DNA from: an uncultured Planctomycetota bacterium
GTDB taxonomy: Bacteria > Planctomycetota > Planctomycetia > Isosphaerales > Isosphaeraceae
Length of the DNA stretch: 64,000 nucleotides
Assembly: GCA_963823665.1 (NCBI GenBank)
Contig: CAWGMQ010000007.1
Coordinates: 832,001 to 896,000 of the forward strand
Direction: 5' to 3'
Position numbers and translations under genes: made by a program. This document shows, piece after piece, positions 1 through 36,953 of the stretch. The stretch's first letter is position 1. Each line of letters opens with the position of its first letter. The notes beneath the pieces were generated by a model. The model worked only from the letters and a program-made list of their open reading frames with translations. It was not told the origin of the DNA and did not search any database.

Positions 1-522
1 GTTCAGATTGATCGCCAGATCATTGTAGCGTGCTGCGGTGGTGGGATTTTCGTCTGTAAACAGGCGCCTTAGAATATCCAGGGCCTGCTCAAAAAGTGGC
101 TGGGCTTCCGCGTACTTCCCCTTCCTGTGCAACGCCACGGCCTGCTGATGGATTGTCTGGCTCGACACGACGATCGCGCGATCCTCCTTCGACATCGCAG
201 CCGTCCGCCGTAGCGAGCGGAGACGGAATTCTTCGGTTACTGTTTCAAAGTGCTTCGCTCCCAGCACTCGCGACCGCAGCTCGAGTAATTCCTCTCCCCG
301 CGCGATCACCTCGTCCCAGCGATCCGACTCAATCGCGGCGCCGATCGTTCTCTCCAACTCCTCCGCCCGTTTGTAGTCCTCGCCGGTCAGCTTCCGCGCG
401 CCGGCGACCGCAGACTGCGAGTCCTTGGGAGTTGCCGTTTGGGCGTGCGAACTCGATGCCAGAACCACGCCCGCGAGATTGATCAACAGCCCAATTGAAA
501 CCGCAGTGCGACAAGCCGTCAT
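1..522 (-). CDS. N-terminal part of a third exported TPR(-CHAT) paralogue; runs off the window start
   Basis: Not in the ORF track. Manual translation from ATG 522 (GAGG RBS) gives MTACRTAVSIGLLINLAGVVLASSSHAQ...RKLTGEDYKRAEEL...DRWDE...KHFETV...GKYAEAQPLFEQAL...NDLAINLN, colinear with the N-termini of 554..4276 and 4310..7782. The CHAT domain is presumed to lie outside the window. Confidence 0.88.
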   Translation of the reverse strand, partial: MTACRTAVSIGLLINLAGVVLASSSHAQTATPKDSQSAVAGARKLTGEDYKRAEELERTIGAAIESDRWDEVIARGEELLELRSRVLGAKHFETVTEEFRLRSLRRTAAMSKEDRAIVVSSQTIHQQAVALHRKGKYAEAQPLFEQALDILRRLFTDENPTTAARYNDLAINLN

Positions 523-553
523 GTGGAACCTCATCAACGATGCGGAAATTCGA

Positions 554-3500
554 TCAATCCGGATTGCCCGCCAGAACGAACGCAGCCCAATAGTGCGGCG
601 ACGCATACGGCCGCTCGGTGTCGCCGCCGGGCGGAATCGCCGCCGCGGGCGTGCGGGCCTTGCTCCCCTTGCCACGCTCGACGCCTCCTGATAGCTCGGC
701 GGTCAGCGCGAGCGCCTCATCGCGGCGCAGACCACGCAACCACGTCTTCGCCTCTCGCAGCGCCTCGGCCTTCGGCATCGGAGCATCGAGCCCCTTCCTC
801 TTTCCCAGCAAATTGGCATAGAAACGCTGCATGAGCAAGGCCGTAGCCGTGTCGTCCACCTTCCAGAGCGACAAGCACACGCTCCGCGCGCCAGAGATCA
901 ACAGCGCCTGCGTGAACCCCACGAACCCCTCTCCGCCGAGATCGCGTCCCAGCGCCGTCTCGCACGCCGAAAGCGTGACCATTTCGGCCTTCAAGTCCCA
1001 ATCATGCTGAATTTCGCGCACCGACAGCCGGCCGTCGAACACCGGTTTGTTCTGGATCGCCTGCTCGAGCGGGTCGGGCAATCCGGCCTGAGTCAGGATC
1101 ACTGCCGAGCGCGCGGGTTGGTCTTCGTCGATCACACCGTGGGTGGCCAAATGGATAAAGCCGTACTTCCGAAGCTCACGCGAAGCCGCAATACGCTCCA
1201 GTTCCGGCTCGCTCGCGCCGGCTCCGAGCATGATCCGGGTGGGCCGACCATCCGAATTGAATAGCTGCGCGAGCGACTCGACCTCATACCGTGTGCCTGG
1301 CAAGGGCGGCAACGCCTCCCCGCCGCCACGCGCCGCAACCAGCATCTTTTGAACTGCGCGATGCGCAGCGATCGCCTCGCGAGCCGGCCGCGAATCCAGC
1401 ACCACGCCGAGTTTGCCCGGCTCCACATCACACCGCGATGACTTGCCATCCCTCCAGAAGTCGACTCCGATCGATTTGTTGCCATCCGCGACGACCTTGA
1501 GGTCGTCCTTGACCTTGAGCGCCAATCCATTATAGGCCAGCAGCACGTCTCCCGCTTTCAGGCCGTGCATGGCGGCGTTGGAACGGGGCATTGCCACGTT
1601 GACCAGCAGGCCGTGATCAGGCAACGGTTCCGGATCGCTCGAGGGCTGCGGTTGCTCGTACAGCGGATCGCCGAGCGCCAGCAGTCCCGCATGGCGGTCA
1701 GCCCGAGGCTGCTCTCGGAGGTACTTGAACACCGTGGCTGACGGGGCATAGCTCACCGTCCGGAAGTCATCGAGGGCAAAGAGCGCCTCGATCGGCACAC
1801 CCGCGAGCATATAGGAAGGAAGGATAACCAGCCGGCGGGTTGCCGTGCCCAGGGCCTTTGCCAGCGGATCGAGCCGTTGAGCGCGTAGTTTCGCGAGCAT
1901 GGGTTGAAGGATCGATGCGCCAGCCGGCGCGTTCTTGCGAAGTTCCGTCCTGACACGCTGCGAGAGAGCAACGTCGTCGTCGCTCCATAGCCCGTCCTTA
2001 CCGGTCCCGGTGATTGAGATCCATTCCGGAACGCCTTGAGACCGAACGACCACGCCCCAGTGCTCGCCGCCGGAGTCGGCCGCCGTCGGGCCGAATGGCC
2101 GAATATCCACCCAGGCAACCAGGACGGTGTCGGCCGGCAACGCGGCCTGGATCTCGCTCAGCTTGGCGACCTTCCCCGCCACCGAATCATGCTTCTCGAC
2201 AAGTTTCGTCTGGAATTCACCCAGAGCAACGCTGGCCAGCTCGCGATTGCGTTTCAAGTCCTCGAACCGTTTTGCCCGCTCGACGTTGTCGAGTCCCTTC
2301 GGGGTGGCCTCCACCAACCGATCGAGGCGATCCAGCTCACTCTTCAGCTCGCGAAGGCGGACCTGGTCCGCGGGGCCGAGGCGCTGGTCCTGCCGCGCGG
2401 CCAATTCGTCAAGCAGCCCTCGGCCCAGGCCTTCCTCCAGCGCTTGCCACGCATCGGCCGGTTGGCCCAACCGGGCGAGTACGGCGGCCAGGCAGAGGCG
2501 CGTCGAATTCTTTGTCCCCGCGCGTTCCAGGCCGCTGAAGGCCAACCCCAATCGAGCCTTATCCAGGCTCTTGGCTGCGCTCATCCATCGGTTCCGCGCT
2601 TCGGTGTATCTCTCCTGAGCCGCCAGGTTGGCTGCCAGGCGATTCAAGCTGATGGCGAGATCCGGGTGATCGTCGCTGAGCACGCGGTGGCGGATCTCGA
2701 GCGCTTTCTCATACAGGGGCTGGGCCTGGGCATACTTGCCCTGTCGCGTGAGGTTCGCCCCCAGGTTCTCGTAGCTTCGGGCGGTGCTTGGGTGGTTGTC
2801 GCCAAGCTGCCGGCGGTGGATCTCGAGCGCCTTCTCATAAAGGGACTGCACCTGGGCGTACTTTCCCTGGGCCGTGAGGTTGTTCGCCAGATTGTTGTAG
2901 CCCAAGGCGGTGTCCGCGTGGTCGTCTGTAAGCAATCTCCGTTTAACTTCCAGGGCCTTTTCCAGGAGCGGCTCCGCCTGGGCGTGCTTCCCCTGCGCCT
3001 CGAGGTTAGTCGCCAAGTTGTTCAAGCTGAGGGCGGTGCTCGGGTGACTATCCGGGAGCGCGCGGCGTTTGATTTCCAGGGCCTTCTCCAGGAGCGGCTC
3101 GGCCTCGGAGTACTTCCCCTGGGCGTTCAAGTTCATTCCGACGTTGTTGTAGCTCAGTGCGGTGTCGGCGTGGTCGTCAGTGAGGAGGCGGCGCTTGATT
3201 ACCAGAGCCTTCTCCAGGAGCGGCAGGGCCTCGGCGTACTTCCCTTGGCGGCTCAGGTTCACTGCCAGAGCGTTGTAGCTGGCGGCGGTGTACGGGTGAT
3301 CGTCCGTGAACGCGCGGCGGTGAATCTCGAGCGCCTTCGCGAAGAGCGGCTGCGCCTCGGCGTACTTTCCTCGATAGGCAAGGTTTGCCGCCAGATTGTT
3401 GAAGCTGATGGCGAGATCCGGGTGGCCATCGGCGAGCAACCGGCGGCGCATCTCGAGCGCCTGTTCAAGCACGGGCTGGGCCTGGGCATGTTTCCCCTGA

Positions 3501-4276
3501 GCGTCGAGATTGGTTCCCAGGTTGTTGTACATTGTGGCACGTAACGGGTTATTCTCAGTGAGCAGCTCGCGGTAGATCTCGAGCGCCTTCTCGAGCAGCG
3601 GCTGGGCCTGAGCACGCTTCCCCTGGGCATTCAAGTTCATCGCCACATTGTTGTAGCTCGCTGCCGTTTCGGAATGGAGGTTGGTGAGCAGGCGGCGGCG
3701 AACCTCGAGCGCCTGCTCGAACAGCGGCTGGGCCTGGGTGTACTTCCCCTGGCCGTTCAAGATCGTCGCCAGGTTGTCCAGCAATTCTGCCGTTTCGGGG
3801 TGCTCGTCGGCGAACAGCCGGCGGTGGATCTCGAGCGCCTTTTCGAGCAGCGGACGAGCCTCGGCGTACTTCCCCTGGCTGCGTAAACTCACCGCCTGTT
3901 GATTCAGGGCGCGGCCGGATGCCAGCAAGGCACGGTCCTCGTTCGACATCGCGGCCGTTCGGCGTATCGATTCGAGACGCCATTTTTCGTTCACCGTTTC
4001 AAAGTGCTTCGGCCCCTGGACGCGCAACCGCAAGGCGAGCAGATCCTCCGAAGGAGCGATCGCCTCGTCCCAGCGATCGGCCTTCAGGGCCGCGTTCACA
4101 GCCTTGTCTAGCTCCTCTGCCCGCGTGGCATTATCACCGGTCAGCTCCCGCAATCCCGCGGTGGGAGGCTGTGCTTCTTTCGGAGACGAGGTCTGGGCCG
4201 ACCCGGGTGAGAACGGAAGCGCGGCGACCAGAGTGATCAACAACCCGAACGAAACCACGTTGCGACAAGCGATCAT
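554..4276 (-). CDS. Exported TPR-CHAT (caspase-like) protease with PDZ-like insert
   Basis: Signal-peptide-like N-terminus, ten 42-aa TPRs (GKYAEAxPLxEKAL) plus a cap, CHAT catalytic motifs IHLATHG and VTLSACETA, terminal HYWAAFVLAG, and a PDZ-like segment GLLVNVAMPRSNAAMHGLKAGDVLLAYNG. Confidence 0.93.
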   Translation of the reverse strand: MIACRNVVSFGLLITLVAALPFSPGSAQTSSPKEAQPPTAGLRELTGDNATRAEELDKAVNAALKADRWDEAIAPSEDLLALRLRVQGPKHFETVNEKWRLESIRRTAAMSNEDRALLASGRALNQQAVSLRSQGKYAEARPLLEKALEIHRRLFADEHPETAELLDNLATILNGQGKYTQAQPLFEQALEVRRRLLTNLHSETAASYNNVAMNLNAQGKRAQAQPLLEKALEIYRELLTENNPLRATMYNNLGTNLDAQGKHAQAQPVLEQALEMRRRLLADGHPDLAISFNNLAANLAYRGKYAEAQPLFAKALEIHRRAFTDDHPYTAASYNALAVNLSRQGKYAEALPLLEKALVIKRRLLTDDHADTALSYNNVGMNLNAQGKYSEAEPLLEKALEIKRRALPDSHPSTALSLNNLATNLEAQGKHAQAEPLLEKALEVKRRLLTDDHADTALGYNNLANNLTAQGKYAQVQSLYEKALEIHRRQLGDNHPSTARSYENLGANLTRQGKYAQAQPLYEKALEIRHRVLSDDHPDLAISLNRLAANLAAQERYTEARNRWMSAAKSLDKARLGLAFSGLERAGTKNSTRLCLAAVLARLGQPADAWQALEEGLGRGLLDELAARQDQRLGPADQVRLRELKSELDRLDRLVEATPKGLDNVERAKRFEDLKRNRELASVALGEFQTKLVEKHDSVAGKVAKLSEIQAALPADTVLVAWVDIRPFGPTAADSGGEHWGVVVRSQGVPEWISITGTGKDGLWSDDDVALSQRVRTELRKNAPAGASILQPMLAKLRAQRLDPLAKALGTATRRLVILPSYMLAGVPIEALFALDDFRTVSYAPSATVFKYLREQPRADRHAGLLALGDPLYEQPQPSSDPEPLPDHGLLVNVAMPRSNAAMHGLKAGDVLLAYNGLALKVKDDLKVVADGNKSIGVDFWRDGKSSRCDVEPGKLGVVLDSRPAREAIAAHRAVQKMLVAARGGGEALPPLPGTRYEVESLAQLFNSDGRPTRIMLGAGASEPELERIAASRELRKYGFIHLATHGVIDEDQPARSAVILTQAGLPDPLEQAIQNKPVFDGRLSVREIQHDWDLKAEMVTLSACETALGRDLGGEGFVGFTQALLISGARSVCLSLWKVDDTATALLMQRFYANLLGKRKGLDAPMPKAEALREAKTWLRGLRRDEALALTAELSGGVERGKGSKARTPAAAIPPGGDTERPYASPHYWAAFVLAGNPD

Positions 4277-4309
4277 CAGGGACCCCTTCGTCGATGTTGA
4301 GAAACTCGG

Positions 4310-7300
4310 TCAATCAGGATCACCAGCGAGTACAAACGCCGCCCAGTAATGGGGCGATTCGTAGGGCCGACCATTGTCGTCAGTGCCGGGGATCGTGGCC
4401 GGCGTCCGGGCCTTGGCGCCCGTGCCGCGCTCGACGCCGCCCGACAGCTCCGCGGTCAGCGCGAGCACCTCAGTGCGGCGTAGCGTGCGCAGCCAGGTCT
4501 TCGATTCGCGGAGGGCCTCGGCCCTGGGCATTGCCGCTTTGAGCCCTTGGCGCTGGCCCAGGAGGTTGGCATAGAACCGCTGCATCAGCAAGGCCGTCGC
4601 TGTGTCGTCGACTTTCCAGAGCGAGAGGCAGACGCTCCGCGGACCTGAAATCAAAAGCGCCTGCGTGAACCCCACAAATCCTTCCCCGCCCTGGTCGCGG
4701 CCCAGCGCTGTCTCGCAGGCCGAGAGCGTCACCAATTCGGCTTTCAATTCCCAGTCATGCTGGATCTCGCGCACGGAAAGACGGCCGTCGAACACGGGCT
4801 TGTTCTTCAATGCCTGCTCCAGCGGGTCCGGCAGGCCGGTCTGGGTCAGGATCACGGCCGAGCGTGATGGGATATCTTCATTGATTACGCCGTGGGTCGC
4901 CAGATGGATGAAGCCGTATTTGCCGAGCTCCCCCGCGGCGGCGATTCGGTTCAGCTCGGGCTCGCGCGCGTCGGTTTCCAGGAACGTGCGCACGGGTCGA
5001 TCAGCGGATTTGAAGAGTTGGGCGAGTGCGTCGACCTCGTATCGTGTGCCTGGGAGCGGGGCGAAGTCTTCATCGCCGCCGCGTGCTGCCACCAGAACTT
5101 TTTGCAGCTTGCGTCCCTCGGCGATCGCCACTGGGGCCGGTCGTGGATCGATCACCACACCGAGCTTGCCGGGAGCCAGGTCTCGCGCGGACAGCCGGCC
5201 GTCGCGCCAAACCTCGACTGCAATCGGCTTGTCGCCTTCATCGATCGTCTTGAGGTCTTCCTTCTTATTCAACTTCACACCGTTGTACGCCAGCAACACA
5301 TCACCCAATTTGAATCCGTGCTTCGCGGCGTTCGAGCCTGGCACCACGACGTTGACCAGCAGCCCGTTGTCCGGCATCGGCGCGGAGTCACTCGACTTGT
5401 CCGGTCGCTCATAGAGCGGGTCGCCCAGAGCGAGCAAACCGGCGTGGCGGTCGGGGTGGGGCTGCTCGCGCAGGTGTTTGTAGACGGTGGCTGAGGGGGC
5501 GTAGCTCACGGTTCTTGTGTCGTCGGGGGCGAGCAGGGCCTCGATGGGAACTCCCGCCATTAAGCGAGAAGGCAGGACGATGAGCCCCCGACACGTCGTC
5601 GTCAAGGCTTTTCCGAGCGGCTCGAGCCGTTGAGTGCGTAGTTTCTGGAGAAGGGCTTGCTGGTCTGGCGAGCCGCCGGCTGGTGTCTTGCGCAACTCGC
5701 TTCGCACACGCCAGGCGAGCGAAACGTCGCCTTCGGTCCACAGCCCATTCGGGCCGGTCCCGGCGATCGGGAGCCAGACCGGAATGCCCTGCGACCGGAC
5801 GACCACGCCCCAGTGCTCGCCATCGGGGTCGGCCGAATTTGGCCCGGTCGGAGGGATGTCGACCCAGGCGACCAGTGCGGTATCGGCGGGCAGCGCGGCC
5901 TGAATCTCGTTCAGAGTGGCGACCTCGCCGGCCAGAGCGCGGTGATCCTTGGCAAGCTTGGTCTGGAATTCACCGAGCGCAATACTGGCCAGCTCGCGCT
6001 GGCGCTTGAGCTCCTTGAACCGCGTCGCGCGCCCGGCCTGGTCAAGGCCTTTGGGGGTGGTTTCCACCAGCCGGTCGAGTCGCTCGAGTGTCGTTGTCAG
6101 CTCGCGAAGGCGGGCTCGCTCCTCGGCGCGAGCCGCCGGTCCTGGCGGGCTGCCAGCTCGTCGAGCAGGCCCCGGCCCAGGTCTTGCTCCAGCATCTGCC
6201 ACGCCTCGGCCGGCTGGCCGAGCCGGGCCAGCACGGCGGCCAAGGCGGGGCGCACAGAACCCGCGTTCACGGCACGCTCGAGCCCGCTGAAGGCGATCCA
6301 GAGCCGGGCTGCGTCCAGGCCGTTGACGGCATGGAGCCATTGGGCGTGCGCCTCCGCGTACTTCCCCTGGGCACTGAGATTGAACGCGACATAACTGAAG
6401 CTGACCGCCGTGTCGGGGTGGTCGTCGGTGAGCAGACGGCGGCGGATCTCCAGTGCCCGTTCGAAAAGCGGCTGGGCCTCCGCGTACTTCCCCTGCTCCG
6501 TCAGATTCGACGCCAAGCTGTCGTAAGCAACGGCGGTATTGGGGTGGTCGTCGGTAAGCAGCCGGTGGTAGAGCTTCAGAGCCTTCTCGAGCGGCGGCTG
6601 GGCCTCGGCGTACTTCCCCTGGGCGCTGAGGTTGCGCCCGACGTTGTTGTAGTTCCCAGCGGTGTCGGGGTGGTCCTCGGTGAGCAGACGGCGGCGGATC
6701 TCCAGTGCCCGTTCGAAAAGCGGCTGGGCTTCCGCGTACTTCCCCTGGGCGGCGAGGTTGGACGCCAGATTGTTATAGCTCGCGGCCGTGTAGGGATGGT
6801 CGTCGGTAAGCAGACGGCGCAAGATCGCGAGTGCCTGCTCGTACAGCGGCTGGGCCTCCGCGAACTTCCCCTGGGCGGCGAGATTGAACGCCAGATTGTT
6901 ATAGCTCAGGGCCGTTTGGGCATGGTCGTCGGTAAGCAGTCGGCGGTGGATCTCCAGCGCCTTTTCGAATAGCGGCTGGGCCTGGGCGTACTTCCCCTGA
7001 GCGTTCAGATTGGTCGCCACGTTGTTGTAGCTTACCGCGGTGGTGGGGTCGTCGTCGGTGAGCAGCAGCCGCTCGATCTCAAGCGCCTTTTCGTGCAGCG
7101 GCTGCGCCTGAGCGTACCGCCCCTGGGAGTTGAGGTTGTACGCCAGGTTGCTGTAGCTGATAGCCGTGTGGGGGTGATCGTCAGTAAGAATGCGCCGGCG
7201 GATCTCCAGGGCTTTCTCGAAGAAGGGCTGCGCCTGGGCATACTTCCCCAGTCCGTTCAGACTTTTGGCCACGCCGCTGTAGCTTATGGCAGTTTGGGGA

Positions 7301-7782
7301 TGGTCGTCGGTGAGCAGACGGCGGTGGATCTCCAGCGCCTCTTCGAATAGCGGCTGGGCCTGGGCGTACTTCCCTTGTGCATAAAGTGCATTGGCTCGCG
7401 AGCTCGATTGATGGGCGGATCGGTAGGCTTCTCGGTCTTCGTTCGACATCACGGCGACGTGTCGCAGTGCCTTGAGAAACCACGCCACATTCACGGTCTC
7501 GAAATGTGCAGGCCCCAGAGCCCGCGCCCGCAGCTCGACCAGTTTGGCGGTCTGCGTGATCGCATCATCCCAGCGATCTGACGCAACCGCCGTGTCGATG
7601 CCCTTGTCCAATTCCTCCGCCCGCTTGGCGTCGTCGCCGGTCAGCTTCCGCAAGCCCATGGCGGCTTGCTGCGCATCCTTCGAGGCCGTTGTCTGCGCCG
7701 TCGCCGGCACGGCGAGGGCCAGGGCTCCGATGACGACCACGATCAGTCGCTTCCATCGCAGCGAAACGTGACGCAGTTTCAT
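4310..7782 (-). CDS. Exported TPR-CHAT protease with PDZ-like insert, paralogue 2 (one frameshift near 6125)
   Basis: ORFs 6097..7782 (signal plus 8 TPRs and cap) and 4310..6340 (PDZ plus CHAT, HLATHG and LSACET) join at QDRRLAP/EERARLREL and are then colinear with 554..4276. Confidence 0.9.
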
Positions 7783-7875
7783 GGTGTGACTCTCCGTGCT
7801 TCAGGGAGTTCAGGATCCGATTAGTTGCTGTTTACATGCATCTGCGTTTTAGTTTCCAGAATCGCTTGCGCGGAA

Positions 7876-7899
7876 CGTCAGGCTGAAAGCCTGACCTAC
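7876..7899. repeat. GTAG-type REP hairpin, class A
   Basis: cGTCAGGCT-gaa-AGCCTGAC-CTAC; a near-identical copy lies at 43492..43514. Confidence 0.7.
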
Positions 7900-7909
7900 T
7901 GCGGCGACT

Positions 7910-9835
7910 TCAACGGCCCTTGGCCGGCTCTACGGGGAATGCTTCGAGAGTCACAACATCGACGCCGGGCAGGCCGCGGAGCCAGGTGCCCAGCTTGGCG
8001 GCGGGCCCTCCCGAGTCGCGAGCCTTCGCGCCTTTGCCTCGCGTTACGGCGGCGGCTTCGGCCAGCAAGGGCTCGAGACCTTGGCCTTCGTCTCGCCAGA
8101 CGACCCCGGCTTCGCACGGCAGCCTCGCCGACCAGGCCATCTGGCCAACGCGCCGCTTCCACTCGCGATACGGCGGCAGCGGCTGGCGCGACACCACCAG
8201 TGCAAACGCACACAACCCCGCCCCCTCGCTCAGCCGGTACCGGTCGTCGCTCTTCGAAGGCGGAGGATAGACAGGCTGCCGCTTCTTGACAGGCTTCGTC
8301 TCCTCGTCGTCAGGGTCGCAAAGCTGATCCGTCCCGTCGGGACGGAAAGCGATCAGATACGAGTAAGCGGGTTCGGAAAGCTCGGCCTCCACCGTCACGT
8401 CGTCGTCCTCGCGCGCGGCGAACGACGTCCGGCCGAGCACCCCGGATCGTTTGTTGTCGTACTTGTCTTCACCGGCAAGCTTGGCGAAATGCGGGATTTC
8501 GAAGCGCGTCACGCGCAGGCGCGGCGGGCGTCGCTGGTTCCGACGCCGGTTGCTGGCTACTCTTCCCCCGGCCGGCGACTGGCGGGACCGACTCGTCCGG
8601 GTCGCTTCCCGAAGACCTCGGCCACAATGCCCAAGCAGGTACACAGAGCGCGAGCAGCACGGCGAGGGTCCCAAAGAGCGGTGCTGCGCGGCGCACGAGC
8701 AGATATTGGCGCAACGCTAGCCGCAACTCGCCGGCGGACTGGAACCTCGCTCTTGGATCAGCCGCCATGGCCTTCAGACACACCCGCTCGATCGTCCTTG
8801 GGATGCGCGGACTGAGCCGGCGCGGCGGGACGATCGATGCCTCACGGGCCTGTTCAATCGTCTTTTCCACCGTCTTGCCCTCATGCGGCGGCTGCCCGGT
8901 CACCAGGTAGTACAGCACCGCCCCCAGCCCGTAGACGTCCGTGCGAACGTCGACCCGCTCACCCTGCCCGCGAGCCTGCTCCGGCGCCATGTAAGGGGGC
9001 GAGCCCGCCAGCCCATGCAGCGATTCACTGGCAAGCGGCACGGCCAGACCGAAGTCGACCAGCCGCGGCAGACCGTCGTCGCCCAGGATGATGTTCTGCG
9101 GCTTGATGTCACGATGCAGCAGGCCGCAGGCATGCACCTCGGCCAGCCCCTCGGCAACCTGGGCGACCACCTTGGTGCAAAACTCGAAGTCAGCCAGCTC
9201 TGCCGCTGTCACGTCTTTGAGCGTGCGGCCGGGAATGTATTCCACGACAAGGTCAATCTCGTCGCCCTGGATCTCAACTCCGTAGCAGGGCGCCACGAAC
9301 GGGCTGCGGACCCGCGCCAAGGCGCGCCCTTCGCTCAGCACGGCGTCACGGCGCCGCTGGAGGCAACGTCGTGGTAACGCTTGAGAACCACCAGACGCTG
9401 CAACGCTCGGTCGCGCGCCAGGTACGTCGTCGCCTGGCCCCCTTTTCCCAGCATCCGGATCAGCTCGTAGCCCGCGGCCATCGCAGCCGGATTCTGCCCG
9501 GCAGTCACGGTGGCCGTCGCCTGGGGATCGGGTTCGGTGTCCTTCAATCCGTCAAAGACGTCACGGACCGCTTCGGCCCGGTCGGGGAATCGAGCAAGAT
9601 AGGAATCCGACTCCGCGGACCGCCCGGCGCGGCGGGCTAGCTCGATGTCGAGGGCCAGCAACTCGCGGAAGAGGCGACTGCGGCTCGATTCGCCGACCAC
9701 GGCGGCGAGCTCATCCTCGATGCGTCGCGGCCGGCCGGCGTTCAAATCCGCCTCGAACCGGTCGCAAACCGCAATGACTCGCGCCAGGTCGTCCGGCGGC
9801 AGCGAATCGTCGTTGGGTCGGCTCGCCAAAGACAT
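7910..9835 (-). CDS. Membrane Ser/Thr protein kinase with C-terminal DUF4384-like extracytoplasmic domain (frameshifts near 9350 and 8530)
   Basis: Three ORF pieces: planctomycete-type N-terminus (AVCDRFE...ELLALDIEL...YLARFP), then LGKGGQ, VVLK, HRDIKPQN, DFG, YMAPE and DVYGLG, a TM segment LFGTLAVLLALCVPAWALW, and DDDVTVEAELSEPAYSYLIAFRPDG. Confidence 0.88.
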
Positions 9836-9959
9836 CCTCAGTAACTCCGTCGTCGCAACAAGGGCGGTGCACGCTTCAAGCTCAGCGTGCACCGCCCCCC
9901 GGTGATAGTTATCGTACAGAAGGCCGCGGGTCGCGGCAAAACAATTCGACCCGCCAGGA

Positions 9960-11656
9960 TCAACCCTGGCGATGGTCCTTCAGACCGCGATCGGCATGCC
10001 GCGGGAGATGCCGGACGGGCATGTGGACTCGCGCCTTGCGCAGCGCTTTCTTCGGTAGCGTCTGGCTGGGGCTCGGACTGACAGGCTGCGGGGTCGCGAC
10101 CGAGGGGCTTGGTGTCGACGGACTCGGGTTCGACGGAGTCGAGACCGACGGCGATCCGGAAGGAGTGCCCGACTGTGCCTTCACCTGCGAAGCCGCGGCG
10201 GTGAGCTCTGTAGTTTCGGCCGCGTTGTTGTACGACACAACGAAGCTCGTTCCTGAACTCAAGAGATTCGACGTGATGTCCTGAACGACGGAACTGGTGC
10301 CGATGTCCAGCGCCTGAGACTGCCAGCTTGAGCTGTTGATCGGGCCCGAGACGCCGTCGATCACGGCCGAACAGTTTGAGAACGTCGTACTTCCGAAGTC
10401 AGCCAGATCCGCGAGCGTACCTCCCTGAAGGGTCGGGGCCTCAACGATCCACTCGGCACAACTTCGCTGGGCGAGCGGGCTCTGGTACTGGGCCGACGTG
10501 ACATAGATGCTGAATGAGTCATTGGCCCTGCTGTTGTCAACGATATACAGGAGATATTGACCCGCATGGGCACCCGAGGTGATGTACTGGACCACGCCGG
10601 TCATCGAATCGCCGGGTTCGACCGTCATCTGAGCGATGGGCTGCTCCGTCTGTCCTTTGCCGGACGAGTACATCTCCCACCATGCGACATAGACTGTCTT
10701 GCCGTTTTCCAGCGCTTCCTGGGTCCCGACTTGCTCCACCGTCCCGTTGCCGTAGCCGTCGATTCCCACCCAGACGGATGAGTCGGTGTTGGCACCCGCT
10801 GGCCCGGTGACCGCGGGAACGATCCACGAGCCGACGACTTCTGTCACCGAATTCGGCTGCGGGCTGGAGAGATTGGCCGCAGCGACGTAACCTGACCAGT
10901 TGTTCATTATCACCACATTCGGGTTCGGGGTCGGCGCAGACGACCCACCGATGTAAAAGAGCTCCAGGCCGTTCGACACATTCTCGAATCCGTAGGGCGT
11001 GGCCGCCGTCGCAGGTGGCGTGCCCGTGCCCGTCCACTCACCGTAGCCTTGCGCCAGCGTGACCAGCGTATCATTGCCGGTCGTCGTCGTCGCGTCGAAG
11101 TAAGTCTGGGGCGTCAGACCGCTCGAATACGTCGTCGAGAAGATCTCAGACTGGCCAGGCGCCTCGGTGTAGAGTGTCCAGGGCGAGGACGGGGTCCACC
11201 TGAAGTCGAATCCAACGGTGTAGCTGCTGTTGTTCGTGATCGACACGACGGCATCGGTCGAGGCCGGCGGGGCGCTGGCGGCACGTAGAAGAGGTTCACG
11301 CCGGTTGCCGTATTCTGGAACTCGTAGAGCTTCGCGGCGGATGCCGGCGCCGTGCCAGTTCCAGACCACTCGTTGTACCCCTGCGCCATCGTGACCACCT
11401 CGTCATTGCCAGGCGAGGTCGTCGGGTTGAAGTAAGCCTGAGGCGTGAGGTTGCTCGAATACGCCGTCGACAAGATCTCACCCTGGCCAGGCGCCTCCGA
11501 AAAGGAGCTCCAGGCCGAGGACGGACTCCAACGGAAGTCGAAGCCCACGTTGTACTTGCTCTCGTTCAGGATCTCCACGACCGCCACCGACATCAGGCAA
11601 CGGTCCTCGACACCCTCGAAATTCGGCCGGAAACGCGGTTTGCTGCGAGTTTTCAT
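9960..11656 (-). CDS. G1-family (eqolisin-type) glutamic endopeptidase with planctomycete extracellular signal and two tandem N-terminal domains (frameshift near 11275)
   Basis: N-terminus RFRPNFEGVEDRCLMS; G1 motifs NWSGY, SVWVGIDG, VEQVGT, AWWEMY and AEWIVEAP; Pro/Ser linker and basic tail. Confidence 0.87.
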
Positions 11657-11837
11657 CGTTGCGTCCCTCAAGAGTTGTTGGTGCACAGCCGGATGACTGG
11701 TCAATTCCCAAGGGTCAACCGCCAACGGCTCGCACGATGCGCAACGAAATCGGGCGTGGGGACTGATGAACTGGCCCGCGACCCGCGATAAAATGCCAAC
11801 CTACCTGGTGCTTCAGTCCCCGAGATGGAGAACCTTC

Positions 11838-12542
11838 GTGGACGAGACGAGTTCCCCCGGAGACGACGGAAAGGCTCCGCCGATCGACACGCAGGAGCAC
11901 CCGGCTGGATCAGTCACCCAATGGATCGGCGACCTGAAAACCGGCGACGAGCAAGCAGTCCAGCCGCTGTGGGACCGATATTTCGCCAGCTTGGTCCAGC
12001 GGGCGCGGACGAAGCTGCGCGCGATCCGCAGCTCGACCGCGGTCAACGACGAAGAGGACGTCGCGTTAAGCGCGTTCCAGTCGCTGTATGAGGGTATTCG
12101 TGAAGGCCGATTCCCGCGGCTCGAGGACCGCGACGACCTTTGGCGGCTGCTCGTCCACTTGACCGCGTGCAAGGCCGTGGACCGTCATCGCGCCGAAAAT
12201 CGCCAGAAGCGAGGCGGCGGAAAGGCACTGCGAGAAGTCGACCTGCTCGCGGCCGGCGCCTCGGATCTGGACGAGGCGAACCCGCTCGAGCGGATCGTCG
12301 GCAGCGAGCCGAGCCCGGATTTCGCCGCCATGGTCGCCGAAGAATACGCCCACCGGCTCGACGCACTGGGCGACGCGACGTTGCGCCGGATCGCCGAGCT
12401 CAAGCTGGCGTGCCACAGCAACGACGAAATCCGCCAGCAGCTTGGCTGCTCGCTCCGCAGCGTCACGCTCAAGCTCGAGCTCATCCGAAAGATCTGGCGG
12501 GGCGGAAATCCGAAATCCGAAACGCGAAATCCGAAGGCGTGA
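11838..12542 (+). CDS. ECF-type sigma factor, planctomycete-type
   Basis: GSVTQWIGDLKTGDEQAVQPLWDRYF, DEEDVALSAF, DLWRLL, KRGGG, EPSPDFAAMVAEE and a region 4 HTH. GTG start follows GGAG. Confidence 0.9.
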   Translation: MDETSSPGDDGKAPPIDTQEHPAGSVTQWIGDLKTGDEQAVQPLWDRYFASLVQRARTKLRAIRSSTAVNDEEDVALSAFQSLYEGIREGRFPRLEDRDDLWRLLVHLTACKAVDRHRAENRQKRGGGKALREVDLLAAGASDLDEANPLERIVGSEPSPDFAAMVAEEYAHRLDALGDATLRRIAELKLACHSNDEIRQQLGCSLRSVTLKLELIRKIWRGGNPKSETRNPKA

Positions 12543-12549: not shown

Positions 12550-14022
12550 TCAGGCCAGAAGCTTCGTGACCACGTTACCGGCAACGTCCGTCAGCCGGAA
12601 GTCCCGGCCCTGGAACCGGAATGTCAGCTTCGTGTGTTCCAGGCCGAGCAGGTGCAGGATCGTGGCCTGGACGTCGTGGATGTGAACGCGGTCGGAGACT
12701 GGGGCGAAACCGAACTCGTCGGTCTCACCCAGGGTGAAACCTGCTTTCACGCCGCCGCCGGCCATCCACATCGTCATCGCGTCGATATGATGGTTGCGGC
12801 CCACCGTTTCGCGAATTTCGCCCATGGGGGTGCGTCCGAATTCGCCGCCCCAGACCACCAGCGTGTTTTCGAGCAGGCCGCGAGATTTCAAGTCCTTGAT
12901 CAGGGCCGCACAGGGCTGATCGATGTCGCGGCAGACCTGGTCCAGGTCGCGCGTCAGCGTCTGGCCGGGAACGCCGTGGTGGTCCCAGTCGGTGTGATAG
13001 AGCTGCACAAATCGCACGCCGCGCTCGACCAGACGGCGGGCGAGCAGGCAGTTGTTGGCAAACGACGCCCTGCCGGGGACCGCGCCGTAGAGATTGAGCG
13101 TCGCGGGTGTCTCCGAGGCGAGGTCGATCAGTTCCGGAGCACTCGTCTGCATCCGCGCTGCGATCTCGTAGGCTGTGATCCGCGTGGCGATCTCAGGATC
13201 GGCCGTCGCATCCAGGCGGGCCTGGTTGAGCGCGACCACCGCGTCGATCGCGCGCCGCTGCTGCGCCGTTGAAATTCCAGGCGGCGTGCTCAGGTTCAAG
13301 ATCGGCTCGCCCCCGCTCCGCAGCGGCACGCCCTGATAGGAAGAGGGCAGGAAACCGCTTCCCCAGTTGACGGCCCCGCCGCGCGGCCCGCGCGAGCCCG
13401 ACTGCAACACCACGAAGCCGGGCAGATCGGCCGACTCGCTGCCGATACCGTAAGTAACCCAGGCGCCCATACTCGGCCGCCCGAACTGCGCTGTGCCGGT
13501 ATTGGCGAAAAGCTTGGCCGGCGCATGATTGAAGACGTCGGTCGCTGCCGATTTCACGATTGCCAGGTCGTCGACAACTTCAGTCATGTGCGGCAAGAGA
13601 TTCGAAACCCACGCACCCGATCCACCGTGCCGGGCGAACGAACGATAAGTTCCCAGCAACCTGGGATGCTCTTTCGTGAACATATCCATGAACGCGAATC
13701 GACGGCCCTGTATGAACGAGTCCGGAATCGGCTGGCCGCTAAATTTCTGAAGCTCCGGCTTGAAGTCGAACAGCTCGAGCTGGCTGGGGCCGCCGGCCAT
13801 GAACAGGTAAATCACGCTCTTCGCCCGCGCCGGGAAATGCCCGGGCCTGGGCGCGAGCGGGTCGCGACTGCGCTCGGCGGCCGACGCCGGCCGGTCGCCG
13901 GCCAAGAGTGTGGATAAAGCAGCCGCGCCCAGCCCAAGGCCACACTCCGCGAAAAAGTGGCGGCGTGTTTTATGATGCAACGCGCGGGCAAGCATCTCTT
14001 CGGCGTTCAAACGGGCGGCCAT
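12550..14022 (-). CDS. DUF1501 family protein
   Basis: Tat-like TRRHFF, AKSVIYLFMAGGPSQLELFDFKP, FNHAPA, LARRLVERGVRFV, WDHH, WGGEFGRTP, GRDFRLTDV. Confidence 0.93.
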   Translation of the reverse strand: MAARLNAEEMLARALHHKTRRHFFAECGLGLGAAALSTLLAGDRPASAAERSRDPLAPRPGHFPARAKSVIYLFMAGGPSQLELFDFKPELQKFSGQPIPDSFIQGRRFAFMDMFTKEHPRLLGTYRSFARHGGSGAWVSNLLPHMTEVVDDLAIVKSAATDVFNHAPAKLFANTGTAQFGRPSMGAWVTYGIGSESADLPGFVVLQSGSRGPRGGAVNWGSGFLPSSYQGVPLRSGGEPILNLSTPPGISTAQQRRAIDAVVALNQARLDATADPEIATRITAYEIAARMQTSAPELIDLASETPATLNLYGAVPGRASFANNCLLARRLVERGVRFVQLYHTDWDHHGVPGQTLTRDLDQVCRDIDQPCAALIKDLKSRGLLENTLVVWGGEFGRTPMGEIRETVGRNHHIDAMTMWMAGGGVKAGFTLGETDEFGFAPVSDRVHIHDVQATILHLLGLEHTKLTFRFQGRDFRLTDVAGNVVTKLLA

Positions 14023-14040
14023 GGTCAATGACCCTCTTCC

Positions 14041-16567
14041 TTACTCACGCGTGACGAATTCATCAAGATTGAGCAGGACCCGGGCCACCGTGACCCACGG
14101 GGATTTGTCCGACGACGGGCCTGCGCCGGGTGCACTCACCTGGGGGTCCGTTTTCAGCTCGTTGCGCTCCTGCGCAAGCACATTCTCGAGAGTTTTGAGC
14201 TCACCCGCGGAGGCAGGGCGGCCCAGGCAGAGCAAGAAGCGCTCGCTCGAGGCGATCGCGGTCCGTGGCGGGGGCCGGCCGTTCGGCAAGGATGCGCGCG
14301 GCCAGAGCCTGGGCGATCTCGACTGATGCCGGGTCGTTCAGAAGCGTCAGCGCCTGGAGCGGCGTGTTGGATCGCAATCGCCGCGTGCACGACTGCACGC
14401 CGCCGGGAGCGTCGAAGGTCGTCAGGAACGGATGGGGCGTGGCGCGCCAGAAGTAGGTGTAAAGTCCGCGACGAAAGCGGTTCGGGCCGATGTCCGCCAC
14501 CCAGGGACGCTTCATCTGGCCCAGGGTCATCACTCCTTCGGGCTGGGGCGGGAAGACACTCGGGCCGCCAATCTTTGTCGTGAGCAGACCGCTGCACTGT
14601 AACGCCGCGTCTCGAATCAGCTCGGCATCCAGCCGCAGCCGCGATTGCCGCCAGAGCAAGCGGTTGTCGGGATCGACCGCGTGCGCGCCCTTCCGGTGGC
14701 GCGACGACTGGCGATAGGTCGCCGAGCCCACGATCAGCTTGTGGATCCGCTTTTCGTTCCAGCCGCAATCCATCAGCTCGCAAGCGAGCCAATCGAGCAG
14801 CTCGGGATGGCTGGGGTAAGAGCCCTGGGTGCCGAAATCGTTATCGGTCTCCACGAGCCCGCGCCCGAAGTAGACCTGCCAGATCCGGTTGACCACCACA
14901 CGGGCCGTGAGCGGGTTGCGGCGATCGACGAGCCAGCGTGCCAGGTCGAGACGGTCAGGAGGCGTCCCCGGACTCTCGTTCACGAGAGGGGGCAACACAC
15001 GCGGCGCGCCCGGGTCGACGCGGTCGCCCTTGCGCGTGAAGTCGCCTCCCAGGTGGATGTGGGTGGGCCGCGGGGTCCCCTTGTGCTCGCTCACCACCAT
15101 CGTCTTGACGAACTTGGGCTCGGCGGCGCGGAGCTTCACAAGCGATTCAAATTCGGGCCGAAACACGCTGTCTTGCGCCATCAATAGCTCGATGAGCGCA
15201 CTTCGCTGTGCCGTCGACCGCTTTTCGCGCGGCAAATCGAATGCGACCCGCACGTCGGGATCCTGCGCCTGAGTGAACTCGAGTTTGAGCGTCTTCTCCC
15301 AGTTCCGCTCGCGCTCATCCAGGTCGGGGTATTTCCTGGCGAGCACACGATGGAGCTCGTTGATCTGAGCGCGCACCTTGCGCCGGGCTTCGATCTGGCG
15401 CGGACTGGCAAGCTCGAGCTCGGGCTCATCGACATTGTTGAAGAACGCGAAGAGCTGATAATACTCGCGCTGCGATATCGGGTCGTACTTATGATCGTGG
15501 CACTGGGCGCAGCCGACCGTGAGGCCGAGGAAGACCGTACCGGTGGTGTTGACGCGATCGACGATCGAATCGACCCGGAACTGCTCGACGTCGATCCCCC
15601 CCTCCTGGTTGATCAGCGTATTTCGATGAAACCCCGTGGCGATGCGCGGGGCGAAGGCGTCGCCCGGGCAGAGGTCGCCGGCAAGCTGCTCAGTGGCGAA
15701 CCGGTCGAACGGCATGCCGGCATTGATGGCCACGATGACCCAGTCGCGATACTTCCAGATCGAGCGGGGAGCGTCGATGCTGTATCCGTTGGAATCAGCG
15801 TACCGCGCCTGATCGAGCCAGAGCCGCGCCCAGCGCTCGCCGAAGTGAGGCGACTCGAGCAGCCTGTCCACGACTCGCTCGGCCGCACCCGGCGCAGTGT
15901 CGCTCACAAAGGCGTCGACTTCGTCGGGCGAGGGGGGCAAGCCGGTCAAGTCGAGGCTGAGCCTGCGGAGCAAGGTCCGCCGATCGGCTTCGGGCGAGGG
16001 CCGAAGGTGAGCTTCTTCGAGGCGCGACTGAATGAAGGAATCAATGGGGTTGCGAGACCAGCCGGTGCGAGAGAATTTCGGCAATGCCGGATTCGCGGGC
16101 GGCACGAACGCCCAGTGCACCTTGGCCGGCGGCACGCCCGGTTTTTCGCCGGGCTGGGCCTTCGCCCCCTGGTCGATCCAGGCTTCGATGAGCTTGATCT
16201 CGGCCTCCGGTAGCGGCGGCCGGTTGAGGGGCATCCGATCGCCCGCCCCGTCGCCCCTCAGGGCTTCAATCAGTGGGCTCGAAGCGCCTTTGCCGGGCAA
16301 GACCACCGGCCCGCCCTTGCCGCCGGTCATCGCCGCTGCGGCCGTGTCCAGTCGCAGTCCGCCGCGCGGCTTGGCCGCGCCGTGGCAGCTCACGCAATGA
16401 CGGGTCAAGATCGGCTTGATCTGGCTCGTGTAATCAATCGATTTCGGCGGGGATGACGACGGCCCGTCGCCGGCTTTCGCAGCGAGTGCGAAATAAGCGG
16501 CAAAGAGCGCCGGAGCGAGCGAGACCACGGTGAAAAACGCCCCGATTCGAGGGTGCAACTTGCCCAT
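14041..16567 (-). CDS. PSD1/DUF1549/DUF1553 planctomycete cytochrome c protein (frameshift near 14240)
   Basis: CxxCH motifs CVSCHG and CAQCHDH, HWAF, NPIDSFI, WLDQARYADSNG, NPLTARVVVNRIW, SHPELLDWLA, NTPLQAL. C-terminal VARVLLNLDEFVTRE is in a second frame. Confidence 0.92.
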
Positions 16568-16809
16568 TCGAGGAATCGCCGGCGGTGGTGAGGAAAGAAA
16601 TCGGCGTGAGGGATATTCGGCTGGATCAAGAGTCCCAGCCGCGCAGGATCGCAGAACACCTATCAAGATACCGCAATCGACCGACAATAAGCCAGCACTT
16701 TCGTGGAAACGCCGCTCGGAGCCGAGCCCGCGAACGGGTCTGACTCTCGGGCGAAGATCGACCGATGGGGCTTCCCGGTCGCAGCGTGATACATAAGTCG
16801 TATCCAACA

Positions 16810-17511
16810 TCACGAGCTCGGAACGACGCATGTGCTGCTCCGCGTTCCGCCCGCGCTCGAGTCGCTCGCAGCGCCAATACGCTGCTCAATCATCTCAATC
16901 ATCTCCTCCACTTCAAGAATGCGCTCTTCCAGGTCCGAGAACTTGGAACCCGCGATAAGGTCCGAGAAAACGGCCCGGGCTGCCTTCAACCGGACCGCTT
17001 CGGAGTCGCTTTCGACCGCAATCCTGACGATGATTTCCGCCGCCCGTGCCGTGTTCGGCGTCATTCGGCCGAGGGCCCGACTCATCAGACGCCGGCGACA
17101 ATTCGCGACCTCCTTGCGAACCTCCGGCTCACGTGCCCACCGCTGGGCCGTCCGCTCGGCGACCCCGTTCTTCCGCGCCCACGCCGCGACAGATTGGCCG
17201 CGCGCGATAGCAACTCCAAGCGAGGATTTCTTTTCTTCCATCTCGGAAGCTACTTCATGCATTTCGGCCGTGTTCCGCCACGACGGCTGGGTGGTCTCCA
17301 GGTACGGCCCGTCCGTGATGGGCACCCTACCATCGGGCTTCGCCCGCAGCGACTTCGCGCTGCGAGCCGGGTGCAGGCCGCCCGCGAAAACCCTGACACC
17401 AGCAGCAATCATCTCTTCGTTGAGCACGTCGATATCGCGCTCCATCTCTTCGTCCTCTGCGATGGCTGGGTCGTAATCGTCGGGGTGGTGAATAGCAACC
17501 AAATACTGCAT
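16810..17511 (-). CDS. Chimeric ORF: truncated YciI/DGPF-like N-terminus fused to an HTH plus helical domain
   Basis: The first ~73 aa match YciI-like proteins up to TDGPYLET. The remainder GQSVAAWARKNGVAERTAQRW...VRLKAARAV...LEERILEVE is HTH plus helical. Confidence 0.6.
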   Translation of the reverse strand: MQYLVAIHHPDDYDPAIAEDEEMERDIDVLNEEMIAAGVRVFAGGLHPARSAKSLRAKPDGRVPITDGPYLETTQPSWRNTAEMHEVASEMEEKKSSLGVAIARGQSVAAWARKNGVAERTAQRWAREPEVRKEVANCRRRLMSRALGRMTPNTARAAEIIVRIAVESDSEAVRLKAARAVFSDLIAGSKFSDLEERILEVEEMIEMIEQRIGAASDSSAGGTRSSTCVVPSS

Positions 17512-30856: not shown

Positions 30857-30894
30857 AAAAAGAAGGTTGACTCTCGATCTCGGGAAACGTCTCC

Positions 30895-33800: not shown

Positions 33801-34397
33801 GGCGCAGACCATGGATATCTTCGAGATCCCGTACTCGGCAGTTTGGAGCGGCGAGTTCGAGCAGATGGAGGCAGCCAACGGCCGGCTGATGTGGATCATT
33901 CCCCTGTCACTGGCGCTGATCTTCATCCTCCTGTACGCGGCGTTCCGCTCGTTCCTGGACACGATCGTGATCTTCAGCAACGTGTTCGACGTGGCCGTGG
34001 GCGGCATCTGGTCGTTGTACCTGACGGGGACCAACTTCAGCGTCGCGGCGGCCGTAGGCTTCGTCTCGCTGTTTGGGATCGCCATCATGGAGGGCCTGCT
34101 CTTGATCTCGTATTTCAACGCGCTTCGCGCCAGGGTCTCGGTCTCCACGACGCCATCGTCCAGGGCTCTCTCAAGCGAGTGCGCCCGGTCATGATCACCG
34201 CCATGACCGCCATCCTGGGGCTATTGCCCGCGGCCCTGTCGACGAAGATCGGCGGCCAGACGGCTCAGCCCCTGGCCATCGTCGTCGTTGGCGGGATGAC
34301 CGTGACGCTCTTCCTGGACCGCTATCTCATGCCCGTGCTTTATAGCTTCTACGGTCACCGCGAGCCTCCGGCAGGGGGCGGGGGCATGGCCCATTGA
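30895..34397 (+). CDS. czcA: Heavy-metal RND efflux pump, CzcA/CusA family (frameshift near 34130)
   Basis: EAYPD, AEEVERQVT, SKSLFGLS, GAVDFGIIVDSSVVVVENI, GREFMPELEEG. The C-terminal RVRPVMITAMTAILGLLP is in a second frame. Confidence 0.9.
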
Positions 34398-34469
34398 GGT
34401 GGTCGGATCATCGCCCTGTTGAGTCGCGGTAACTCCCCTATTGACTGAGCGAGTTGATTGGAGCGGACC

Positions 34470-35249
34470 ATGCCCGGGATCCAGACGATTCTGCATCCGA
34501 GCGATTTTTCGGAGAACTCGCTGCCTGCCTTTGAGACCGCATGCGCACTGGCACGCGACTACAATGCGAGCCTGGTCGTTCTCCACGTCATGATCCCGTC
34601 CTCATCACCGTTCCTGGAAGGACCACCGCCGGATCCGCTCAGGTCGGCTGAATCCCAGGAGTCCGTGGCGCATTTGCCCTGGCCGCAGCCGGCGGGCCCA
34701 CCCATTCGAGTCGAGCATCGCGCGGCCGAAGGAGATGCTGTGGAGGAGATCATTCGCCTGGCGGAGGCGCTCCCGTGTGACCTTGTCGTCATGGGCACTC
34801 ACGGCAAGACCGGGTTGGGCCGGATTTTGACCGGCAGCGTGGCGGAGGGGGTCTTGCGCAGGGCCGGCTGCCCGGTGCTCGTGGTCAAAGCTCCGACAGG
34901 GACGCCGCGAGAAGCCGATACGAAACCGATCGCAAATCCTGGTGACATCATCAACGCGCGCCCTCTCGGGGCAGCGCTCCATTCGGCCCACAGCCAGACG
35001 CTGGTGCGCACTGCCTCGCTCGAAGTTGTTCGCTTGATCGTCCGAGCCGGCCAGGAAGTCCACGTGCACAAGGCCAATGGCGACCTGATCGTGCATTGCC
35101 TCGAGGGGAGCGTGGCCTGCACCGCGCTCGGCAAGACGGAGCTGCTCGAAGCGGGCAAGCTTCTGAGTTTATCAGCGGGCGAGCTGCACGCGCTCAAAGG
35201 GCTCATGGCTGCTTCTCTTCTCTTGACAATCGCGATCCCGAAATCCTGA
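34470..35249 (+). CDS. Universal stress protein fused to a cupin domain
   Basis: ILHPSDFS...DLVVMGTHGKTGLGRILTGSVAEGVLR..CPVLVV, then EVHVHKANG..VHCLEG...ELHAL. Confidence 0.88.
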   Translation: MPGIQTILHPSDFSENSLPAFETACALARDYNASLVVLHVMIPSSSPFLEGPPPDPLRSAESQESVAHLPWPQPAGPPIRVEHRAAEGDAVEEIIRLAEALPCDLVVMGTHGKTGLGRILTGSVAEGVLRRAGCPVLVVKAPTGTPREADTKPIANPGDIINARPLGAALHSAHSQTLVRTASLEVVRLIVRAGQEVHVHKANGDLIVHCLEGSVACTALGKTELLEAGKLLSLSAGELHALKGLMAASLLLTIAIPKS

Positions 35250-35287
35250 CGGGCTTCCGGCGGATCGGAAGTGGATCAAGGTGCTTT

Positions 35288-36914: not shown

Positions 36915-36953
36915 GAAAATCCTCTGGCGAGGGTCTATGGAAAGGCTGTCGAT

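Follow-up and report, generated by a model that had tools for sequence, protein, structure and literature searches.

A co-varying R-G peptide suggests an address between probably exported CHAT proteases and a DUF4384 receptor kinase in an Isosphaeraceae genome

Introduction

How could proteases that probably lie outside the cytoplasm be matched to a membrane kinase and, through it, to a sigma factor? The question is raised by a locus in the first 12,542 nucleotides (nt) of a 64,000 nt window (the whole stretch of DNA that was analysed; assembly GCA_963823665.1, contig CAWGMQ010000007.1, positions 832,001 to 896,000) from an uncultured planctomycete of the family Isosphaeraceae, with a genome of 16.5 Mb in 12 contigs. 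The minus strand carries a G1 peptidase, a receptor Ser/Thr kinase and three TPR-CHAT genes, with a sigma factor of the extracytoplasmic function (ECF) type divergent from them, and an earlier sequence-only reading had joined all of these into one relay from protease to kinase to sigma factor. We found a short peptide beginning with Arg-Gly (R-G) that co-varies between the proteases and the outer DUF4384 domain of the receptor, and which quite probably serves as an address between the two.

A peptide shared by protease and receptor

The features of the module are as follows, with the model confidence of structures given as the predicted local distance difference test (pLDDT).

11838..12542, plus strand: ECF sigma factor (PF07638, E-value 8e-33, homologous starts), with a GGAG site ahead of the likely GTG start
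7910..9835, minus strand: receptor Ser/Thr kinase with helical N-terminal domain, kinase domain, transmembrane (TM) helix, linker and DUF4384 domain (sequence and intact homologue P0001)
9542..9835, minus strand: helical N-terminal domain of planctomycete type, candidate sigma-binding domain (model of five helices, pLDDT 85)
8622..8687, minus strand: single TM helix after Arg-Arg (sequence; homologues hydrophobic at the same place)
7910..8518, minus strand: DUF4384-type immunoglobulin (Ig)-like outer domain (Pfam E-value 3e-4; model pLDDT 90.5)
8018..8041, minus strand: receptor code peptide R/GKGAKAR on the least ordered DUF4384 loop (loop pLDDT ~65; Arg conservation; covariation)
4310..7782, minus strand: TPR-PDZ-CHAT copy 2, with a signal-like peptide at 7696-7782
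4406..4429, minus strand: copy 2 code peptide R/GTGAKAR (sequence)
554..4276, minus strand: TPR-PDZ-CHAT copy 1, intact, 1240 amino acids (PF12770 E-value 2e-56, TPR_12 E-value 4e-123), with a signal-like peptide at 4196-4276 and His1046/Cys1105
1421..1615, minus strand: DegP/HtrA-like PDZ domain inside the CHAT domain of copy 1 (domain match)
653..676, minus strand: copy 1 code peptide R/GKGSKAR on a C-terminal loop (sequence)
1..522, minus strand: 5′ portion of TPR-PDZ-CHAT copy 0, a gene that runs on ~3.2 kb to the left of the window

In the window, RGKGAKAR on the DUF4384 loop has a match in RGKGSKAR, carried by the intact CHAT copy on its C-terminal loop, and matching receptor/CHAT pairs of quite different sequence were found elsewhere (RGEVRPLA/RGDVRPLA, RGEPRKRSGEPV/RGEPRHKPGVPV and RGDILRRESA/RGEIVRREAV). 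Both loops were readable in 41 pairs, from the window and 40 of 60 related loci, and the six residues after R-G gave a covariation score of 14.1, compared with -0.05 ± 1.4 for shuffled pairings (0/20,000 shuffles). When each receptor cluster was represented by a single pair, the corresponding figures were 0/20,000 for 19 clusters, 0/20,000 for 11 and 11/20,000 for seven. As controls in 25 intact pairs, covariation was absent for the residues that precede the Arg (19,029/20,000 shuffles), and the other R-G loop of the CHAT protein barely co-varied (1,141/20,000). Among homologues, the DUF4384 loop keeps the Arg in 195/199 cases and the subsequent Gly in 169 of the 185 that could be parsed.

The CHAT proteins of loci L038, L042, L048 and L066 sit in the CHAT clade of the window (support 100, in a quick version of the tree) and have bodies 58–71% identical to copy 1, while their tails match their own receptors, which are only 32–38% identical to that of the window. 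The code tracks the local receptor, not the CHAT tree. In genome G042, 47 dispersed CHAT matches stand against two receptor matches, and among the best 17 of these CHATs, 15 carry an RG(D/E)VRPLA-type code like that of receptor L042 and two carry RSK(G/S)AEKR, with the code conserved while the remainder of the CHAT loop varies (pairwise identity 72–85%). Thirteen loci from genome G033, mostly frame-broken or unparsable, lay outside this comparison. The link between CHAT and DUF4384 that had been proposed from the layout alone is thus backed by a co-evolving peptide which formed no part of that proposal, and the shared code makes the link between protease and receptor directly testable.

Conservation of the module

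The DUF4384 domain, searched against 120 further genomes of the family, was matched in 33 of them, and the loci compared here are the best 60 distinct ones from 88 matches outside the genome itself, with 25 weaker matches and three duplicates omitted. A CHAT catalytic domain was located downstream on the same strand in 50/60 loci (49/54 where the flank was at least 5 kb), and five of the ten loci without one end at a contig edge. The kinase precedes DUF4384 in 52/60 loci, an ECF gene lies within 5 kb in 42/60, and all three are present in 37/60. The neighbourhood survey thereby bore out the predicted co-occurrence of ECF, kinase-DUF4384 and CHAT (all three at 37 of the 60 loci, which come from 33 genomes), indicating that the three-part module is real and conserved. 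There was no other recurrent partner gene family in the flanks of the 60 loci. In a sample of the phylum, with only 10 candidates scored per genome, 4/300 genomes gave matches, two of which have kinase-DUF4384 followed by CHAT, and a profile search returned 794 clusters at an E-value of 1e-30 or better.

The genome also has a second module (L082, G000:C11:46000-66000), consisting of an ECF, zf-HC2, a kinase-DUF4384 with RGIPSPK, a free DUF4384 gene, and two CHATs that lack a PDZ match and carry the code RGTPDFD.

The receptor kinase

The receptor has intact kinase motifs, and the outer domain ascribed to it previously was recovered, after a single hydrophobic helix, as a C-terminal match to DUF4384 (PF14326), which at 21 bits is below the curated cut-off of 27; a homologue reached an E-value of 3e-5. 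The domain was modelled as an Ig-like sandwich, with the late loop as its weakest part. Foldseek gave no significant match for either the DUF4384 domain or the kinase N-terminal domain, and a VIA fold search gave generic matches, with best Z-scores of 7.0 (DUF4384, beta-sandwiches) and 6.1 (N-terminal domain); Csx30 and anti-sigma domains were not among the VIA matches listed, which excludes neither. An atlas search returned planctomycete clusters without names only, and PADLOC matches for the kinase were set aside as generic kinase hits.

The helical N-terminal domain occupies the position of a zf-HC2 anti-sigma domain in relatives, where zf-HC2 was matched at the kinase N-terminus in 3/5 tested, one of these above the cut-off; in the window this domain lacks an HxxxCxxC motif and gave no clear fold match. 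Inner parts joined to the same outer module were helical plus kinase (as in the window), zf-HC2 plus kinase, other helical domains plus kinase, or TIR. Within 120 close homologues the N-terminal domain was helical in 60, zinc-type in 23 and partial or unclassified in 36, and where an ECF was found each type pairs with its own ECF clade (9/9, 8/8 and 9/9). The helical type of the window accompanies the ECF clade found there in 9/10 loci.

Two positions of the receptor domain itself vary with the peptide. For position 40 against P4′, Arg goes with Asp/Glu in 76/101 cases, Glu with Asp in 0/17 and Leu/Ile with Leu/Trp in 9/9, and for position 93 against P6′, Arg goes with Tyr93 in 48/62 and Leu with Gly in 33/53, in tables from which relatedness was only partly removed. 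Since the residues after the Arg co-vary in a complementary way with these positions, the receptor is likely to offer this peptide a groove, which would fit a tethered ligand after a cut, or an exchange with the CHAT copy of the peptide.

Receptors of TIR-TM-DUF4384 type were seen at L036:8254-9522, L037:8230-9522 and L085:6325-7476, the first two followed by a TPR-CHAT with related codes. Orphan TM-DUF4384 genes at L054, L055, L062 and L071 have no kinase, no CHAT and no R-G; as they form one lineage, they were counted once. Apparent ECF-kinase fusions at L078 and L079 are not claimed, as a lost stop could explain them, and the full fusion P0280 keeps a hydrophobic stretch at the junction and may be read-through.

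The probably exported proteases

The tandem TPR-CHAT paralogues, given earlier as at least three, number exactly three with no fourth copy, and the intact catalytic motifs reported for the two complete copies are kept in all three (HLATHG and SACET). Matches to PF12770 (E-values 2e-56 and 2e-55) and the His-Cys dyad place them with the CHAT peptidases of clan CD; among 120 CHAT homologues, the His is kept in 109 and the Cys in 115. Every copy also contains a DegP-like PDZ domain, absent from the earlier description. Copies 0 and 1 are 95–99% identical over the last ~450 nt and 57–81% elsewhere, which looks like an exchange of tails between them.

All three N-termini are signal-like (basic, hydrophobic, then Ala/Gln), and a hydrophobic N-terminal stretch was present in 50 of 52 locatable downstream CHAT starts (39 in frame and 11 across a frame break), as called by an in-house hydrophobicity scan rather than by SignalP. 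The two without it (L079 and L081) are both fused to the end of DUF4384 and have no signal peptide, and P0328 is a third direct DUF4384-TPR fusion. In these fusions the TPR-CHAT part comes to lie with DUF4384 on the outer face of the membrane. The export predicted for these proteases was therefore supported by both the scan and the fusions, and they are very probably exported.

The Glu after LPGT is near-invariant in the CHATs (LPGTRYE), and we take it to align with the helix-1 acid of MALT1 and gingipain. In these Arg-specific clan CD enzymes, that acid binds the P1 Arg (PMC4357240; this paper and the others cited here were available in part, and statements on them refer to those parts). A presumed equivalence of the invariant Asp of LWKVDD to separase D2151 was rejected, as the published mapping falls four places later. 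Short CHAT paralogues without PDZ, with the Cys or His replaced and the code kept, were found at L027:4182-6515 and L042:15903-18257, and are possible decoys. A kinase-DUF4384-TPR-CHAT fusion gene at L079:11511-14869 is broken by an element that resembles a serine recombinase by eye.

The sigma factor and its surroundings

The divergent ECF sigma factor was confirmed by its PF07638 match, and in most close relatives the gene faces the kinase directly over 325–513 bases, with another gene between them in one. Further features on this side of the kinase are:

11714..11742, minus strand: conserved non-coding element GCGCAT-N15-CGGT, candidate promoter (7 aligned upstream regions)
9960..11656, minus strand: G1 (eqolisin-type) peptidase with two N-terminal repeats (Peptidase_A4/G1, PF01828, E-value 2e-30)
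9911..9917, minus strand: GTACGAT element upstream of the kinase, -10-like (kept in 8/8 aligned kinase upstream regions)

In region 2.2 the sigma factor retains the acidic core-binding motif DEEDV, whose D-E-E-D occupies the DAED position, with a Ser/Thr stretch, SSTA, just ahead of it. Earlier, no anti-sigma factor had been visible at the locus; this holds for a separate anti-sigma gene, but is doubtful for the locus as a whole since the kinase N-terminus lies in the anti-sigma slot. For the same reason, and because the acidic motif is retained where EcfP has STTA, activation of the sigma factor by the kinase in the manner of EcfP is doubtful. The GCGCAT-N15-CGGT element points away from the sigma gene and is the only exact match in its own genome, but the pattern was derived from the same loci and its support is therefore circular.

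The G1 peptidase gene is present upstream as described; its secretion was less clear, with no classical signal peptide by eye. Its N-terminus resembles what we take to be the planctomycete export motif LExLExRxLL, for which no Pfam or NCBIfam model matched. Because the gene is present at 0/60 related loci (elsewhere in 26/120 genomes), its proposed membership of the module was not upheld, and we read it as a bystander that was inserted at the locus and could at most be an output gene.

Mechanism and alternatives

We favour, with a probability of about 0.52, a reading in which the exported TPR-PDZ-CHAT proteases would act as variable sensors outside the cytoplasm and, once triggered, would cut after the Arg in their own loop and in the DUF4384 loop of the receptor, which would switch the kinase, with the neighbouring ECF sigma factor then being released or activated. 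That the output runs through the ECF is likely, and we lean towards the R-G address also being the cut site. The view that the kinase N-terminal domain holds the sigma factor, with kinase activation releasing or modifying it, is evenly balanced; it is favoured because the sigma factor keeps DEED, unlike ECF43. For the trigger we tentatively suggest an envelope protein, either foreign or damaged, which the TPR and PDZ parts would recognise.

Several observations weigh against this reading. Specificity in caspase-like enzymes comes mainly from residues ahead of the cut, and as the match lies after the Arg, a docked ligand fits as well as a cut site. Some paralogues without the His or Cys still carry the code, and the CHAT residue aligned with separase D2151, which binds the P1 Arg, is an Ala. 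Six of the 41 pairs score ≤0 (four look mis-parsed or frame-broken, and all were kept), and the match is uneven outside the family (4/6 residues at L083 and 2/6 at L084) and in the second module of the genome itself (1/6 at L082). Two kinase-DUF4384 genes with full flanks lack an adjoining CHAT, no defence gene recurs in the flanks of the 60 loci, and the module copy of the window is frame-broken in the assembly. Finally, the pairing of N-terminal domain with ECF type may be linkage only, since kin share blocks of genes.

In eukaryotic protease-activated receptors, the signal is given by a peptide that follows an Arg. In a wider and more speculative extension of the favoured reading, families of polymorphic exported CHAT sensors, with up to dozens of members dispersed over a genome, would converge on one Ig-like receptor and expose, through an Arg cut, a tethered peptide for the receptor to read, with kinase, anti-sigma or TIR outputs, giving an innate-immune-like network of the envelope.

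The alternative that survives best, which we still consider unlikely, is a ligand that acts without receptor cleavage: the CHAT peptide would displace the matching peptide of the receptor from the DUF4384 groove, clustering or opening the receptor, and the CHAT would cut its own loop or nothing. This would suit the confinement of similarity to the residues after the Arg, their covariation with the receptor's own positions 40 and 93, and the code being kept by catalytically dead paralogues. The conserved Arg and Gly of the receptor, however, lie on its least ordered stretch, as expected of a cut site, and R-G is lost in the sole orphan lineage, which has neither kinase nor CHAT.

It is improbable that DUF4384 is instead a bait or inhibitor, which keeps exported proteases inactive as securin does with separase, such that the proteases would be weapons against outside targets and the kinase would signal either that they had been released or that Arg-specific proteases of foreign origin had cut the bait. 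The Ig-like fold of DUF4384, whose Arg loop is exposed, is compatible with this, as the gingipain prodomain inserts a loop with an Arg into the enzyme's own S1 pocket (PMC4357240), and so are the free DUF4384 gene in the second module and the dozens of CHAT copies in G042. Many proteases per receptor nevertheless suit converging sensors better than one-to-one inhibition, and every receptor with an adjoining CHAT has a signalling domain on its inner side (kinase, TIR or zf-HC2 plus kinase).

The full relay of the sequence-only reading, with G1 peptidase, CHATs, kinase and sigma factor in one system and phosphorylation switching the sigma factor on as in EcfP/PknT, is very improbable. The intact kinase motifs, the SSTA just before the acidic motif and the predicted kinase linkage of planctomycete ECF59-62 (bioRxiv 2019.12.11.873521) speak for it, but they are set against the absence of G1 from all 60 related loci, the DEED of the sigma factor where EcfP has STTA, and the zf-HC2 anti-sigma domains at the kinase N-terminus of relatives. 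The view that the cluster is decayed or arose by chance, in a genome of very large size that is rich in ECFs, kinases and CHATs (143 ECF-family and 22 CHAT matches, and five frame breaks in the locus) is largely refuted by the order conserved in 33 genomes, the peptide covariation, the intact close homologues and the breaks in unrelated genes.

Relation to known systems

DdvA-DdvS of Myxococcus xanthus is like the module in that an extracytoplasmic TPR-CHAT controls an ECF across the membrane, and on the inner side DdvA carries a zinc anti-sigma domain, which it shares with the zf-HC2 relatives of the module; self-cleavage of DdvA is proposed there, not demonstrated (PMC11506125). DdvA is one polypeptide, described without kinase, DUF4384 or PDZ in the available text, whereas the protease of the module is separate, multi-copy and code-bearing; unlike DdvA-DdvS, the module has no linked CRISPR (clustered regularly interspaced short palindromic repeats) or CBASS (cyclic oligonucleotide-based antiphage signalling system) island (PMC11506125). 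By hydrophobicity scan and fusions, the TPR-CHAT of the module likewise lies outside the cytoplasm, but it is encoded by a gene of its own rather than in a single chain with a zinc anti-sigma domain and TM of the DdvA type, and the rare fused relatives include kinase and DUF4384.

The Craspase arm Csx29-Csx30-CASP-sigma also combines a TPR-CHAT with a partner that controls an ECF (PMC10028731, PMC9729208), and Csx30, the substrate of the TPR-CHAT Csx29, has one C-terminal group that is DUF4384 (bioRxiv 2022.08.17.504292). That arm differs in being cytoplasmic and triggered by RNA via Cas7-11 and in cutting after Met/Leu, with no membrane kinase in the parts available (PMC10028731, PMC9729208). 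Neither Cas7-11 nor a CRISPR array, as in a Type III-E system, was present among the annotated open reading frames of the window or its left flank.

The genes of ECF43 (EcfP/PknT and EcfK/PknS), ECF59-62 and ECF217 neighbour that of a membrane Ser/Thr kinase and lack a separate anti-sigma gene (PMC8999054, bioRxiv 2019.12.11.873521), and the sigma factor of the window, with its adjacent Ser/Thr kinase and no separate anti-sigma gene, conforms to the planctomycete kinase-linked type. In ECF43 the DAED is replaced by the phospho-acceptor STTA, whereas the window has DEEDV (PMC8999054), and the available text describes no protease partner for any of these groups (PMC8999054, bioRxiv 2019.12.11.873521). 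In Haliangium, SAVED-CHAT, PCaspase, PCc-sigma and PCk similarly cluster a CHAT, a sigma factor and a Ser/Thr kinase, and proteolytic activation of the kinase was hypothesised; this system is cytoplasmic, triggered by cyclic oligoadenylate and equipped with a second caspase, and the available part does not mention DUF4384 (bioRxiv 2023.06.23.546230). In DegS-RseA-sigmaE, a PDZ-bearing envelope protease cuts a single-pass ECF regulator (PMC10028731). The protease and receptor folds of that pathway, and those of the protease-activated receptors, are unrelated to the ones found here, making these analogies only.

By analogy, the module would work like a DdvA-DdvS system that has been divided into separate proteins and has gained a kinase, DUF4384 and PDZ, or like Csx29-Csx30-sigma moved outside the membrane; it is a member of neither. 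A literature search found no description of the module or motif, within a scope that left out subscription journals and bioRxiv supplements, including an ECF classification supplement which may cover CHAT neighbours. If true, the favoured reading would assign a function to DUF4384 as well as to many uncharacterised signal-peptide TPR-CHAT proteins, and the cut or docking site that it names is precise and testable, something the DdvA work still lacks. The peptide code would predict the pairing of protease and receptor from sequence alone, suggests how planctomycetes with >100 ECF-type genes may separate their pathways, and hints at a programmable protease-receptor pair.

Frame breaks

Five frame breaks affect four genes of the locus, at ~6122 in CHAT copy 2, ~9354 and ~8515 in the kinase, ~11268 in the G1 gene and just past the Cys in copy 0, and the CHAT gene at 554-4276 alone is one open frame. 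Contigs of four soil runs were compared with the locus, with thin coverage at most of the breaks. The breaks are probably assembly errors, because the contig of a relative has one extra base at 11268, the intact kinase homologue P0001 (641 residues) is 87% identical over the outer domain, and unrelated genes of the window are split too, such as a squalene-hopene cyclase that spans two frames. The latter belongs to a hopanoid cluster at 50477-54073, together with radical SAM DUF3463 and phosphorylase genes.

Neighbouring genes

To the left of the locus, L011:2-8511 is a very large gene for a surface-type protein that contains glycine-rich regions as well as repeats. A TIR/SEFIR-TM-TPR gene (L011:12435-13817; PADLOC bSEFIR, E-value 1e-57) lies beyond the window, ~2.5 kb to the left of the CHAT array, and is the only defence-like neighbour seen. 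Within the window, a DUF1501 and DUF1549/DUF1553 cytochrome pair at 12550-16831, ordinary for planctomycetes, adjoins the module without overlap, RND/HlyD efflux genes with an outer-membrane factor occupy 29255-41002, and a DDE transposase lies at 62920-63942.

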